Of a stretch of DNA of 64,000 nucleotides, positions 59,981-63,669 are shown one piece after another. The notes under the pieces were generated by a model. The model saw nothing but the letters and a program-made list of their open reading frames with translations. It had not been told where the DNA came from and made no database searches. The position numbers were made by a program, and so were the translations under genes. How positions within the stretch are numbered: position 1 is the stretch's first letter; each line of letters begins with the position of its first letter. The DNA lies in the NCBI GenBank assembly GCA_964487345.1, contig CAZAQN010000012.1, positions 26,822 to 90,821 of the forward strand, in the 5' to 3' direction. This DNA is from an uncultured Terracidiphilus sp. (GTDB lineage: Bacteria > Acidobacteriota > Terriglobia > Terriglobales > Acidobacteriaceae).

Positions 59981-60319
59981 TTAGTAACGCCCTCGTCCGC
60001 GGGCGCTGCCTGCTCCTCCGCCACTGCTGCCTTTTCGCGCCTGGTAGCAATCGCGGCAGAATACAGGCCGGTCGCCGCGCGGCTCAAAAGGAACAGTCGT
60101 TGGCTGGCCGCAGCCCGAGCAGATCACAGGCGTACCCTGTGCAGGAGCCGAACGATAGCCGCCGCCGGAACCCCCCTGGTCGTTTTTCTTTGCCATTCGG
60201 CATGGCTTGCAGCGTTTTGGTGTCGAATAACCACGTTCCTGAAAGAACGCCTGATCTGCAGCGGTGAAGGTAAAGTCCTGCCCGCAGTCGCTGCAAGTGA
60301 GCTGAATATCTCCTGCCAT
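59981..60319 (-). CDS. zinc-ribbon protein with CxxC-x17-CxxC module and Gly/Arg-rich tail
   Basis: CSDCGQDFTF...CKPC, then CSGC-(17 aa)-CRDC. ATG 60317-60319 is preceded by GAGGAA. Confidence 0.8.
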   Translation of the reverse strand: MAGDIQLTCSDCGQDFTFTAADQAFFQERGYSTPKRCKPCRMAKKNDQGGSGGGYRSAPAQGTPVICSGCGQPTTVPFEPRGDRPVFCRDCYQARKGSSGGGAGSARGRGRY

Positions 60320-60511
60320 GGGGTTTCCTCGTGCGGAGATTGTACCGCCCATTTGAACAATTTTGAATAAGGAATGTATTTAGAACGTAAAACTTACCCC
60401 GAGACCTCATCTGATGCTTTAAGTTTCATGACAGTCTGGAGTGGCTCGCACGCTATATTCGTTCAGTAAGTTTCGGGCTCACAGGATTGGCCCAGTTACT
60501 TCAATAGCAAT

Positions 60512-61138
60512 ATGCCGGCGAACCCAGAACTCGAGGCTGAATGCATCCGCCGGGTCATCGCCGGAGAGCGCCATCTCTTCCACGATCTGATTCGCCCTTG
60601 CGAGCGATCCATCTACCTCCTGCTGCTCTCGTTGCTCAAGAACGAAGCCGAAGCGGAGGACGCAGCGCAGGAAACTGCGATCAAGGTCTATCTGAACTTG
60701 CATCTTTTTCGAGGTGAAGCACAGTTCCGCACCTGGGTGCTATCCATCGCACGAAACGAGGCGCTCAGCCGCCTGCGCAAGCAGGGAATCCGCCGCGAGG
60801 AATCGCTCGATGCCGCGAGCGACGATCAGTCGGGCGACTATACGCCGGCCATCCTCACTAGTTGGCGCGAAGTCCCAACCGCAGCGCTTGAACAAAAGGA
60901 GCTTGGCGCCCTTCTTCGCAAGGCAATCGAGGGGTTGCCGGAGATTTACCGTAACATTGTGCTCCTCCGAGACATCGAAGAGATGGACATCCGCGAGACA
61001 GCAACCGCCCTCGGCATCAGCGAGGGAGCAGTGAAAGTCCGGCTGCATCGGGCTCGCGCAATGCTTCAGAGGGAGCTGGCCCCGCAATTGAAAGCGTTTG
61101 CACCCAAGCGCAGAGGTCTCTTGTGGGGGCGCGCATGA
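60512..61138 (+). CDS. ECF (group IV) RNA polymerase sigma factor
   Basis: Region 2 (...AEDAAQETAIKVY...FRTWVLSIARNEALSRLRK) and region 4 HTH (...MDIRETATALGISEGAVKVRLHRAR). Confidence 0.92.
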   Translation: MPANPELEAECIRRVIAGERHLFHDLIRPCERSIYLLLLSLLKNEAEAEDAAQETAIKVYLNLHLFRGEAQFRTWVLSIARNEALSRLRKQGIRREESLDAASDDQSGDYTPAILTSWREVPTAALEQKELGALLRKAIEGLPEIYRNIVLLRDIEEMDIRETATALGISEGAVKVRLHRARAMLQRELAPQLKAFAPKRRGLLWGRA

Positions 61139-61380
61139 GAATCGACTGCAAACACGTCTGGCAGCACATCTCCGCTTACATCGAGGGGGAGGTAGACGCA
61201 ACTATGCGCGCCGAGATCGACAAGCATCTCGAGACCTGCGAGATCTGCTCCGCAGTGCTGGACTCCACACGCAATGTCGTCATCCTCTTGGCCGACGACC
61301 GCGTCTTTGAGCTACCGGCCGGGTTTCGCCAGCGCCTCCATGAACGCATCGACAGAGCGTTACAAAGTGGCAGCTCATAG
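61135..61380 (+). CDS. soluble zinc-binding anti-sigma factor (ZAS, RsrA-like)
   Basis: 81 aa with no TM segment. Residues C5...H31-x3-C35-x2-C38. Its ATG overlaps the sigma-factor stop (ATGA at 61135-61138). Confidence 0.8.
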   Translation: MRIDCKHVWQHISAYIEGEVDATMRAEIDKHLETCEICSAVLDSTRNVVILLADDRVFELPAGFRQRLHERIDRALQSGSS

Positions 61381-61479: not shown

Positions 61480-62091
61480 TCATGCGAGAGAATTTTCACT
61501 TTCCGCTACGATCCCTGCATCTCTTCCACTCTCGCGCTGCTTCAGCTGAAATGCATGCGAGCTTGCCTCAGAATGTCTCGCCAGGGAAAAAGCGGCTCGG
61601 ACGCGCATCTCCGAAACATTGTGCGGAAAGACAGCGCCAGGCGGCGGCCCCGTCCGATGCACCATCGGATGAGTCCACGTCTCGAGCCCCACCAGGATCA
61701 GGGTCAGAATCGCCATCGCTATCTGCAGTTTTTCGCTTCGCTTTTCCTTCGCGCTCAACTCGCGCCTGCGCCACTGTGCCGAGGGCCGTGAACGGAGATG
61801 CCGGATCCAAGCCAACACCGCCAAATTCACAATCGCGCCAACCGTTGCCAGAATCAGCATGGGAATGCGAATCGCATCCTGATGAAAGCCTTTCGCCGGC
61901 GCATAGATGCCGCTGGCGGCTGCTAGGGCTGACAATCCAATCGCCACACGAATCCCGCTGATAGTGAGGACCGCGGTGCACAGGCTTTGCGCAATCGCGA
62001 CAATCAGGCCCGCGCCACCAATAGCGGTCCAACTTCTTGAATTCACCGGCAACCTCCCATCGCCAACCCGCATTTTGCGTGATAGGCTCAA
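61480..62091 (-). CDS. hypothetical membrane protein (about 4 TM)
   Basis: Four hydrophobic helices. The C-terminal about 50 aa look non-membrane. No family recognised. Overlapping opposite-strand ORFs make the call moderate. Confidence 0.45.
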   Translation of the reverse strand: MSLSRKMRVGDGRLPVNSRSWTAIGGAGLIVAIAQSLCTAVLTISGIRVAIGLSALAAASGIYAPAKGFHQDAIRIPMLILATVGAIVNLAVLAWIRHLRSRPSAQWRRRELSAKEKRSEKLQIAMAILTLILVGLETWTHPMVHRTGPPPGAVFPHNVSEMRVRAAFSLARHSEASSHAFQLKQRESGRDAGIVAESENSLA

Positions 62092-62361
62092 TCAGCTTAA
62101 GGCCTCTCGGGCCGATTCAAGAACCTGAGGCCAACTCGGTAAACTTCCGACCAATCCAATTGCCGCTGAGGCCCGTTCATCCAGCAAAGGGCCCGGAGCG
62201 AAGAAATTCATTTTCACTGGCACCCTTTTCGCTGTAACCTTTCGCCCGTGCAGCCACTCTTTGTGTGCGTGCCACGGAAAGTGCTGGATCGTTCCCTTGG
62301 TCCCGCATCGCCGCAAACGGCGGAGATCCTCCGCCCCAAACCCCAAGCGAGGTCAATCCAA

Positions 62362-62661
62362 ATGAAGAACCAATTCAATGCTCTGCTGCTTTCCGCAGCT
62401 CTCTCCGGTCTGGTTGGCGGAACTGTCGCGGCTCATGCGGCCACACCAGGAACCACGGCGAACGGCACCTCGGCCAAGGCAGTCAAGGCCGGCCTGCGCT
62501 ACACCAGCCAGGACACCACCAAGCACTCCTGTAAAGGCAAAAACGACTGTAAAGGCCAGGGCGGCTGCAAGTCGAGCGACAACGGCTGCAAAGGCAAGAA
62601 CAGCTGCAAAGGCAAGGGCGGCTGCGCAACCGACGGCTCCAAGATGCCGAAGCTGGTCTAA
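62362..62661 (+). CDS. Sec-exported Cys-rich RiPP precursor candidate (bufferin BufA2 / 6-Cys type-like)
   Basis: ATG 62362 gives MKNQFNALLLSAALSGLVGGTVAAHA|ATPG... (AxA cleavage site). The core is HSCKGKNDCKGQGGCKSSDNGCKGKNSCKGKGGCATDGSKMPKLV. Located immediately upstream of the DUF692/DUF2063 genes. Confidence 0.8.
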   Translation: MKNQFNALLLSAALSGLVGGTVAAHAATPGTTANGTSAKAVKAGLRYTSQDTTKHSCKGKNDCKGQGGCKSSDNGCKGKNSCKGKGGCATDGSKMPKLV

Positions 62662-62808: not shown

Positions 62809-63669
62809 ATGCCCGGCAATCGCTTCAACGCGCATTCGAATCACGGCATCGGCATCGGCCTGCGCATTCCGCATTACCAGCACATCTTCTCGCGCCAGCC
62901 TATCGTCGATTGGTTCGAGATCATCTCTGAGAATTTCATGGTCGACGCAGGCCGCCCCCTCGCGGTCCTCGATCAGATTCTGGAGCAGTATCGCGTCGTT
63001 CAGCATGGGGTTTCCATGTACTTCGGCTCGGTGACCGCGCCCGATCCCGAACACCTCCGCCGATTGAAACAGCTCGTCCGCCGGACAAACACACCGTGGC
63101 TGAGCGACCATCTCTGCTGGGGTTCGGTTGACGGAACCTACACGCATGACTTGCTCCCGCTGCCTTACACGTGGGAGGCCGTGGAACGCACCGTGGAGCG
63201 TGTTCGTCACGTGCAGGATTACCTGGAGATCCCCGTTGCCGTCGAGAATGTCAGCTCCTACGCGGCATTCACTGGCTCGCAGATGACCGAATGGGAGTTC
63301 CTGAATGAAGTCGTCGAACGCGCCGACTGCGGCATTCTTCTGGATGTGAACAACATCTATGTCTCGTCCGTGAATCACGAGTTCAATCCGATCGACTACG
63401 TGAATGCCGTCCCCGCGCATCGCGTCGCGCAGATTCATATCGCTGGCCATTCGCGCTACGAGAAGTACATCCTCGACACGCACGACCATCCCGTCATCGA
63501 CCCGGTGTGGCAGTTGTATGAAAGAGCAATCGCCCGCTGCGGTCCAACGCCGACGCTGCTGGAGTGGGACGATCACATTCCTAGCTTTGATGAGGTGCAC
63601 GCCGAAGCAAAAAAGGCCGAGCGCTATCTCCTCGCTCACTCTGGAGAACTAGCGGAGGTAGCGAAATGA
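62809..63669 (+). CDS. DUF692 family multinuclear non-heme iron oxidase (MNIO; MbnB/BufB/HvfB-like)
   Basis: TIM-barrel DUF692 pattern: IGIGLRIPHY...WFEIISENF...HGVSMYFGS...WLSDHLCW...VENVSSY...LLDVNNIYVS...IHIAGH...DTHDHPV...TLLEWD. Confidence 0.92.
   Translation: MPGNRFNAHSNHGIGIGLRIPHYQHIFSRQPIVDWFEIISENFMVDAGRPLAVLDQILEQYRVVQHGVSMYFGSVTAPDPEHLRRLKQLVRRTNTPWLSDHLCWGSVDGTYTHDLLPLPYTWEAVERTVERVRHVQDYLEIPVAVENVSSYAAFTGSQMTEWEFLNEVVERADCGILLDVNNIYVSSVNHEFNPIDYVNAVPAHRVAQIHIAGHSRYEKYILDTHDHPVIDPVWQLYERAIARCGPTPTLLEWDDHIPSFDEVHAEAKKAERYLLAHSGELAEVAK

Follow-up and report, generated by a model that had tools for sequence, protein, structure and literature searches.

What does a small open reading frame (ORF) with six cysteines, lying directly ahead of an oxidase gene, encode, and what becomes of its product? 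The ORF in question runs on the + strand from an ATG at 62362 to a TAA at 62661 of a 64,000-nt stretch of contig CAZAQN010000012.1 (GCA_964487345.1), hereafter the window, from an uncultured Terracidiphilus sp. of the Acidobacteriaceae. Its 99-residue product is MKNQFNALLLSAALSGLVGGTVAAHAATPGTTANGTSAKAVKAGLRYTSQDTTKHSCKGKNDCKGQGGCKSSDNGCKGKNSCKGKGGCATDGSKMPKLV. We propose, with a probability of roughly 0.85, that this ORF encodes the BufA precursor of a bufferin-2-like periplasmic metallophore, a peptide made by the ribosome and altered after translation (RiPP), and that it heads a bufA-bufB-bufC-DoxX operon of Terracidiphilus-like Acidobacteriaceae. The precursor is composed of the following parts.

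62362..62661, + strand: bufA-like precursor gene, 99 aa plus stop, with a match to NF050166 BufA2
62362..62439, + strand: predicted Sec-type signal peptide, aa 1-26, cleavage AHA/A, from sequence features
62440..62517, + strand: Thr/Ala/Gly-rich spacer, aa 27-52, poorly conserved
62530..62568, + strand: module 1, CKGKNDCKGQGGC, with Cys57, Cys63 and Cys69, aligning with CysI-III of canonical BufA2
62569..62586, + strand: intra-domain linker KSSDNG, family consensus K-[ST]-[GS]-D-N-G
62587..62625, + strand: module 2, CKGKNSCKGKGGC, with Cys76, Cys82 and Cys88, the first two aligning with CysIV and CysV of BufA2
62626..62658, + strand: C-terminal tail ATDGSKMPKLV, family consensus A-T-D-G-S-K

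Comparison with known families places the peptide among the bufferins. It matches NF050166 (‘BufA2 family periplasmic bufferin-type metallophore’) with an E value of 1.8e-9 and 37.6 bits. BLASTP aligns it with BufA2 of Caulobacter vibrioides at 17/30 identities with five aligned Cys, and hhalign joins its family to canonical BufA2 at 97.7% (E 2.4e-12) over 36 columns that correspond to residues 51-86. Pfam yields no family at E<=0.01 and none of relevance at E<=10, and PF10048 (Buf1/DUF2282) is not among the matches. The peptide conforms to the published definition of BUF_6/12Cys (Buf2) precursors (PMC11626156, PMC12452194), its signal peptide being judged from sequence features, and a BufB-type MNIO and a DUF2063 partner lie downstream in the bufferin order A-B-C.

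Bufferins were described in 2024, and both Buf1 and Buf2 of C. vibrioides are induced by copper, protect against copper, are cleaved at a Sec site and have central Cys residues converted to 5-thiooxazoles by BufB and BufC (PMC11626156). In Buf2, four Cys lose 4 Da each and CysI and CysVI remain, probably as a disulfide (PMC11626156). The same paper refers to the first Cys of Buf2, which stays unmodified, as ‘Cys24’; in the preprint supplement, the 61-residue core has its Cys at 12, 18, 24, 31, 37 and 50. The text may contain a numbering slip, or else a Cys other than the first is the disulfide partner; the point bears on how the modification pattern can be carried over to homologs. Among precursor families, BUF_6/12Cys ranks second in size, and its 12-Cys members are described as duplicated 6-Cys domains (PMC12452194). 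Reports of six-Cys precursors beside DUF692 and DUF2063 genes go back to 2021 (PMC8692599). A published genome table already lists an acidobacterial case, Ca. Koribacter versatilis, with a Buf_6-12Cys gene, whose protein is WP_011521333.1 and may be of either subtype, followed by MNIO, DUF2063 and DoxX genes. A 2026 paper groups the products as ‘captophorins’ and counts 64 Terriglobales clusters in its survey (PMC13097082). The class is already published, as bufferins, as Buf2 or BUF_6/12Cys, and as ‘Cys-Lys’ captophorins (PMC11626156, PMC12452194, PMC13097082), which removes any newness that might be read into an earlier note on this DNA, here called the original prediction. Within this class, the window peptide belongs to a distinct subtype that is abundant in Acidobacteriaceae and built only of repeats.

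The enzymes expected for such a precursor are encoded next to it.

62809..63669, + strand: bufB, MNIO (DUF692) maturase, 286 aa, with matches to NF050167 and PF05114
63666..64000, + strand: bufC, DUF2063 partner, cut by the window end, PF09836 E 5.6e-16, with an ATGA overlap with the bufB stop

BufB scores 356 bits against NF050167 MNIO_BufB (‘MNIO family bufferin maturase’; cut-off 310) and matches PF05114 at E 1.7e-109. Models of related systems fall short of their cut-offs: HvfB at 258 bits (cut-off 360), HvfC at 16.7 (142) and the MbnB model TIGR04159 at 40.7 (325). The four near-identical metagenome contigs L001-L004 continue past the window end and carry bufA (99 aa), bufB (286 aa), bufC (298-303 aa) and a DoxX gene (161 aa). 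Read directly from the related loci, gene content and order are stable: all four genes occur in 77/84 loci, bufA always precedes bufB in the 84, and it lies immediately upstream in all related loci examined. The best 80 loci all belong to Acidobacteriaceae or to related Acidobacteriota, with Terracidiphilus, Silvibacterium and Edaphobacter among them. Among 600 candidate stretches listed, with one genome per species, at least 585 encode relatives of the bufA peptide; homologs of the peptide form 5448 clusters at 90% identity, and source records label peptides of this subtype ‘hypothetical protein’. The original prediction of a bufferin-like, Sec-exported RiPP precursor beside a DUF692 enzyme is supported, because of the BufB score, the conserved operon and the homology to BufA2.

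A methanobactin is not indicated by these data. The methanobactin system (MbnA/MbnB/MbnC) shares with the window cluster an MNIO-family enzyme that acts on Cys of a ribosomal peptide and yields a copper-binding heterocycle. It differs in its cytoplasmic leader without a Sec signal, its need for the MbnC partner and its oxazolone/thioamide product, whereas in the window the MbnB score is sub-threshold, the partner is a DUF2063 protein and the peptide has a Sec-type N-terminus. Bufferin 1 (BufA1, DUF2282) shares the bufABCD layout including DoxX, the enzyme family and linkage to sigma/anti-sigma genes. BufA1, however, is a small folded protein that has four Cys and a disulfide, and the window peptide has no DUF2282 match.

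A motif of BufB also agrees with the sequence context of the Cys residues. This motif, E252-W-D254-D255, aligns with E-R-D-F of PDB 3BWW, such that Asp255 stands where the Lys-Cys-type 3BWW has Phe. According to the captophorin paper, Cys-Lys MNIOs carry Asp at the site of FonB Phe250 (PMC13097082), and Asp255 fits this reported signature; the equivalence of Asp255 with FonB Phe250 and BufB2 Asp251 is taken from the motif and not from a direct FonB alignment. With multiple Cys-Lys motifs in the precursor, the MNIO Asp and a PME1/DUF2063 partner, the window cluster has the features given there for Cys-Lys captophorins. That group is described at group level, and the repeat-only six-Cys architecture and its module arithmetic do not appear in the part consulted (PMC13097082).

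These observations bear on a quite different explanation, namely that the ORF encodes an unmodified secreted Cys-rich protein, metallothionein-like or disulfide-knotted, that merely has MNIO genes as neighbours without being a substrate of their enzymes. Three disulfides could arise from the six Cys, many bufferin-type precursor genes are not adjacent to MNIO genes in published surveys (PMC12452194), and one multi-module homolog, P0166, is encoded by a stand-alone gene. Yet the placement of bufA immediately 5' of bufB in every related locus examined, the homology to a proven MNIO substrate and the match between the Cys-Lys motif and BufB Asp255 make this explanation very improbable, and we retain the reading of the ORF as a BufA precursor.

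How is the core of this precursor built? Its Cys are residues 57, 63, 69, 76, 82 and 88, with a spacing of C-x5-C-x5-C-x6-C-x5-C-x5-C instead of the C-x6-C-x5-C originally reported; the multi-site metal cage read into that regularity is a conjecture. The earlier statement that Lys-Gly follows every Cys, with Ala at the last, also needs correction: Lys-Gly follows 4/6 only, Cys69 lying in C-K-S and Cys88 in C-A-T. Five of the six Cys are Cys-Lys sites, and the peptide contains no K-C motif of the kind that defines EGKCG pentads. Module 1, which is preceded by a conserved K-H-S, and module 2 are identical at 11/13 residues and 33/39 nt. The residue identity is reached by 0/5000 shuffles of the mature peptide, by 0/5000 shuffles of the Cys-rich 39 aa and, when the Cys are fixed and the other residues shuffled, by 1/20,000, which bears out the two 13-residue, three-Cys modules that had been seen behind a Sec-type N-terminus in the 99-aa ORF. 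Across the family, the consensus common to both modules is C-K-G-x-N-x-C-K-G-x-G-G-C, and each module splits into two hexads, CKGxNx and CKGxGG. The Cys intervals 6,6,7,6,6 are exact in 96/150 best representatives (50% identity clusters). Loss of the Cys pattern in orthologous loci had been named beforehand as a ground for abandoning the idea; both the intervals and the repeat consensus are conserved.

The core arose by internal duplication of a 13-aa three-Cys module, itself made up of two hexads; the presence of the repeat across the whole family shows that this duplication is ancient. The high nucleotide identity between the modules might instead suggest a recent tandem duplication at the DNA level within bufA. 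That explanation can practically be dismissed: two-module layouts occur in 111/150 representatives, Proteobacterial BufA2 has the layout for five of the six Cys, and 3/11 identical module residues use different synonymous codons, the remainder following the preferred codons of the gene (GGC for 13/16 Gly). Module DNA identity is thus no proof of DNA-level duplication. Of the original statement that the DNA shows the duplication, the 33/39 identity stands, and it reflects protein constraint only.

Comparison with canonical BufA2 highlights where the window subtype departs from its relatives. It shares with C. vibrioides Buf2/BufA2 a Sec signal, the spacing 6,6,7,6 of the first five Cys, C-K-G contexts, the order bufA-bufB-bufC, a BufB-type MNIO with a DUF2063 partner and an ECF-type promoter with the -35 hexamer GTAACC. 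The canonical Cys intervals, however, are 6,6,7,6,13 in 110/120 hits, in contrast to 6,6,7,6,6. Second, canonical CysI lies in H-C-Y-G (CYG in 117/118), whereas Cys57 lies in C-K-G, like the modified positions of Buf2. Third, canonical CysVI lies 13 residues past CysV in a ‘KAC’ strand/helix segment; in the window peptide, the sixth Cys lies at +6 after GG, Cys88 occupies the place of a Phe conserved in canonical BufA2, and the A-T-D-G-S-K tail stands in place of the CysVI segment. Finally, multi-copy canonical BufA2 proteins repeat whole 6-Cys domains 23 residues apart and not 13-aa modules, and the buf2 operon of Caulobacter has no DoxX gene, unlike the window-type cluster. AlphaFold2 models from 75-sequence alignments are in line with these differences. 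The window peptide has a mean predicted local distance difference test score (pLDDT) of 53.8 and no secondary structure, and the canonical BufA2 control a mean of 59.1 with strands at 38-41 and 70-73 and a helix at 75-80 that carries the last Cys; this comparison is supporting evidence only, because both models are weak.

By homology with C. vibrioides Buf2, Cys63, Cys69, Cys76 and Cys82 are the predicted modified positions, and Cys57 and the subtype-specific Cys88 may form a disulfide or further heterocycles. An alternative product of the same enzyme class must be weighed here, in which no disulfide clamp exists, the five Cys-Lys sites or all six Cys become thiooxazoles, and the result is a flexible modular chain whose capacity scales with the number of its modules. 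The logic would be nearer to EGKCG/oxazolin repeats than to folded Buf1 and Buf2. The CKG context of Cys57, set against the nearly invariant CYG of canonical CysI, speaks for such a chain, as do the absence of the canonical CysVI segment, where the hhalign match ends at residue 86, the strands and helix modelled at equal alignment depth in canonical BufA2 only, and natural arrays of 3, 4 and 5 modules, odd numbers included. On the other hand, a Cys57-Cys88 disulfide is still compatible with the sequence, both AlphaFold2 models are of low confidence, and Cys88 is followed by Ala and not by Lys. We regard this product as possible but lean against it. Published analogues, Buf_EGKCG/oxazolin, fontiphorin and gonophorin, share Sec-exported repeats of variable number and a closely related MNIO/DUF2063 pair. 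They carry one Cys per short repeat, which becomes a 5-thiooxazole, and the EGKCG group combines Lys-Cys pentads with an MNIO Phe, in contrast to the Cys-Lys hexads and BufB Asp255 of the window.

Does the number of modules vary, as the original prediction expected? Non-overlapping C-x5-C-x5-C modules were counted among the 150 best representatives (50% identity clusters), and some of the 1- and 3-module counts stem from truncated or mis-called proteins.

1 module: 2 representatives
2 modules: 111 representatives
3 modules: 5 representatives
4 modules: 29 representatives
5 modules: 1 representative
6 modules: 1 representative

Full-length homologs with 3, 4 and 5 copies are found, which upholds the expectation, with the 13-aa module as a finer unit of change than the anticipated step from 6 to 12 Cys. 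P0269 has three modules with intra-domain-type linkers between them, P0202 four modules with K-H-S before each, and P0154 the order M-e-M-e-M-i-M (M, module; e and i, linkers of the inter-domain and intra-domain type, respectively); the stand-alone P0166 has five. These linker types show that single 13-aa modules duplicate on their own, and the module is the unit of expansion and contraction. P0202 and P0154 are real precursors, since each lies directly upstream of an MNIO gene; P0269 sits on a 766-bp contig, too short to show such linkage. One 12-Cys member comes from Planctomycetota (Tepidisphaeraceae).

Many multi-module homologs (P0149, P0158, P0176, P0190, P0195, P0204, P0231, P0265 and P0269) have an extra Cys at a lipobox-like position ending the signal peptide (for example VAAC, LTSC, FASC). 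This Cys suggests lipoprotein-anchored forms, in agreement with a published figure of an estimated ~16% lipoproteins among Buf2 bufferins. PF24646 (DUF7640) weakly matches some of the four-module homologs (P0202, P0154 and P0121; P0202 at 28.9 bits against a threshold of 28.1) and neither the window peptide nor canonical BufA2. Pfam partly covers the multi-module form under this uninformative name.

The N-terminus of the window peptide resembles that of an exported protein. Up to the predicted cleavage site it reads MKNQFNALLLSAALSGLVGGTVAAHA, followed by ATPG, and its sequence features resolve into an n-region MKNQ, an h-region FNALLLSAALSGLVGG and a c-region TVAAHA. It is kept in 75 representatives (50% identity clusters), 73/75 of which have a basic n-region and a hydrophobic run, and from these features together with the published family work (PMC11626156) we infer Sec export. 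The spacer at aa 27-52 shows no alignment consensus except an AG pair, and residues 31-53 have an AlphaFold2 pLDDT <50. Translation from the ATG at 62362 is indicated by the conserved N-terminus and by a Shine-Dalgarno sequence, GAGG at 62349-62352, 9 nt 5' of the ATG and conserved across related loci. A longer ORF of 137 aa from a GTG at 62248 was rejected: its extension lacks conservation, and the codon falls within the conserved promoter element at 62233-62259, upstream of where transcription probably begins. These findings speak against the concern, voiced with the original prediction, that a start elsewhere would remove the signal peptide. Antisense and overlapping ORFs at bufA are not conserved features and were set aside.

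The signal peptide itself is unusually well conserved for a Sec signal, A12-A13-x-x-G16-L17-x-x-G20 being nearly invariant among the 75 representatives. It could also be a feature by which BufB or BufC recognizes the precursor, and the authors of the bufferin work left room for this.

How might the operon be expressed? Upstream of bufA lie a promoter-like element, a structured leader and a set of candidate regulators, including an extracytoplasmic function (ECF) sigma factor and a zinc-associated anti-sigma (ZAS) protein.

62233..62259, + strand: ECF-type promoter-like element TGTAACC-N16-ACTC, sole exact match in the window (0.02 expected)
62266..62361, + strand: 5' leader with two hairpins, a C-rich tract and the Shine-Dalgarno sequence, from a covariance model
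60512..61138, + strand: ECF sigma factor with Sigma70_r2 and r4_2 domains
61123..61380, + strand: small soluble ZAS anti-sigma with H-x3-C-x2-C, PF13490 zf-HC2 E 1.9e-12
61480..62091, - strand: membrane protein of 197-203 aa, divergent from bufA, no family match, co-conserved with the sigma/anti-sigma pair

GTAAC[CT] occurs <=300 nt upstream of bufA in 75/81 loci, and the promoter pattern GTAAC[CT]-N15-17 is otherwise rare (86 occurrences in 1.9 Mb, both strands). In Caulobacter crescentus, the sigmaF motif GTAACC-N16-CGAA drives both buf operons (PMC3511200); the bufA element has the same -35 hexamer and spacing, in a different phylum. The motif is essentially absent upstream of the sigma gene (2/59) and of the membrane-protein gene (0/59), and autoregulation of the sigma gene through it was rejected at 2/59.

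The leader is about 100 nt long, with hairpin 1 at ~62281-62308 and hairpin 2, GGCGGAG-ATC-CTCCGCC, at 62319-62335. A covariance model built from 12 leaders finds one match per locus, abutting the bufA ATG, in 62/84 sources. In that alignment, whose fit to the model favours the structure, the paired share of cells is 94.5%, whereas slid controls give 46-62%; compensatory changes on both sides are present in 45 cells, a count that 0/500 shuffles reach. Pairing of hairpin 1 is kept through compensatory changes (GC/AU/CG), and hairpin 2 is conserved in sequence. The 3' arm of hairpin 2 (CCUCCGCC) is nearly complementary to the Shine-Dalgarno region GCGAGG, so that an alternative fold that sequesters this region is conceivable. 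Rfam yields no match to the leader, and RNAalifold on a crude 22-sequence MAFFT alignment gave no pairs, the curated 12-sequence alignment being needed.

A homolog of the sigma factor lies <=6 kb from bufA in 59/84 loci and downstream of DoxX in the more distant L059, L062 and L076. The ZAS anti-sigma gene overlaps the end of the sigma gene, and its product reaches 40 bits with the RsrA model, below the cut-off. The published survey reports sigma/anti-sigma genes for Buf1 clusters, where they are of the NrsF type, and not for Buf2 clusters (PMC12452194), in contrast to the ECF sigma/ZAS pair linked to the window cluster.

Taken together, the elements suggest the following route. Stress would induce transcription from the ECF-type promoter GTAACC-N16-ACTC, at which the linked ECF sigma factor probably acts while a redox- or thiol-sensitive ZAS anti-sigma restrains it. 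In the cytoplasm, the MNIO BufB with its DUF2063 partner BufC would oxidize Cys in C-K context to 5-thiooxazoles. The peptide would then be exported by Sec and cleaved after AHA, and in the periplasm the thiooxazole sulfurs and nitrogens would chelate copper and buffer excess metal.

The last step has a competitor, a bufferin-like metallophore whose role is not copper buffering and that serves another metal or a thiol/oxidative stress. The linked anti-sigma is a small soluble RsrA-type ZAS protein, whereas metal sensing at the Caulobacter buf operons falls to NrsF, a membrane protein; in C. crescentus, chromate and cadmium also elicit a response of those operons (PMC3511200); fusions of MerC with bufferins point to other metals in part of the family (PMC12452194); and no copper genes are seen in the immediate neighbourhood of the cluster. 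The only functional data for the class nevertheless point to copper (PMC11626156), and copper itself causes a thiol stress that a ZAS factor could sense. A non-copper role is in our estimate unlikely, and a copper-buffering bufferin remains the preferred reading.

Several findings weigh against that reading. The 37.6 bits of the peptide lie below the NF050166 cut-off of 60 and cover profile positions 16-65 of 79, compared with 110.8 bits over positions 2-78 for C. vibrioides BufA2. The modification pattern of Buf2 is not directly transferable because the HCYG CysI and +13 CysVI hallmarks are absent, and AlphaFold2 gives the peptide no confident fold. No copper-homeostasis genes are seen in the immediate neighbourhood of the buf cluster. 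Finally, the pairing of sigma factor and bufA promoter is argued from linkage, since the sigma gene itself lacks the motif.

More tentatively, the features assembled here may define a bufferin 2 subtype with an undescribed architecture, a flexible chain made of repeats only and without a disulfide-clamped fold, in which each of the five Cys-Lys sites, and perhaps the sixth Cys as well, becomes a thiooxazole, module copy number sets metal capacity, and control is exerted through the ECF/ZAS pair, GTAACC-N16-ACTC and the leader; as a whole, this proposal is somewhat less probable than its negation. If true, the repeat-only subtype bridges folded bufferins and EGKCG repeat peptides. Among MNIO-modified ribosomal peptides, bufferins form the largest group known, and they have recently been recognized as a copper-defence system. 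The general picture of the class is unchanged by this locus, which extends the same system to bacteria dominant in acidic soil and peat. The curated NCBI BufA2 model misses a subtype that is abundant in Acidobacteriaceae, and in a subtype without the characterized disulfide pair the modified Cys cannot be assumed. The natural 3-, 4- and 5-module variants form a series in which repeat number could be related to metal capacity and enzyme processivity.

Across Acidobacteriaceae, the sigma, ZAS anti-sigma and membrane-protein genes keep their linkage to bufABCD. A gene at 59981-60352 on the - strand, just upstream of the sigma gene, encodes a double treble-clef zinc-finger protein of 112-123 aa (PF13451 and PF23477) and is co-conserved there in most Terracidiphilus-like loci.

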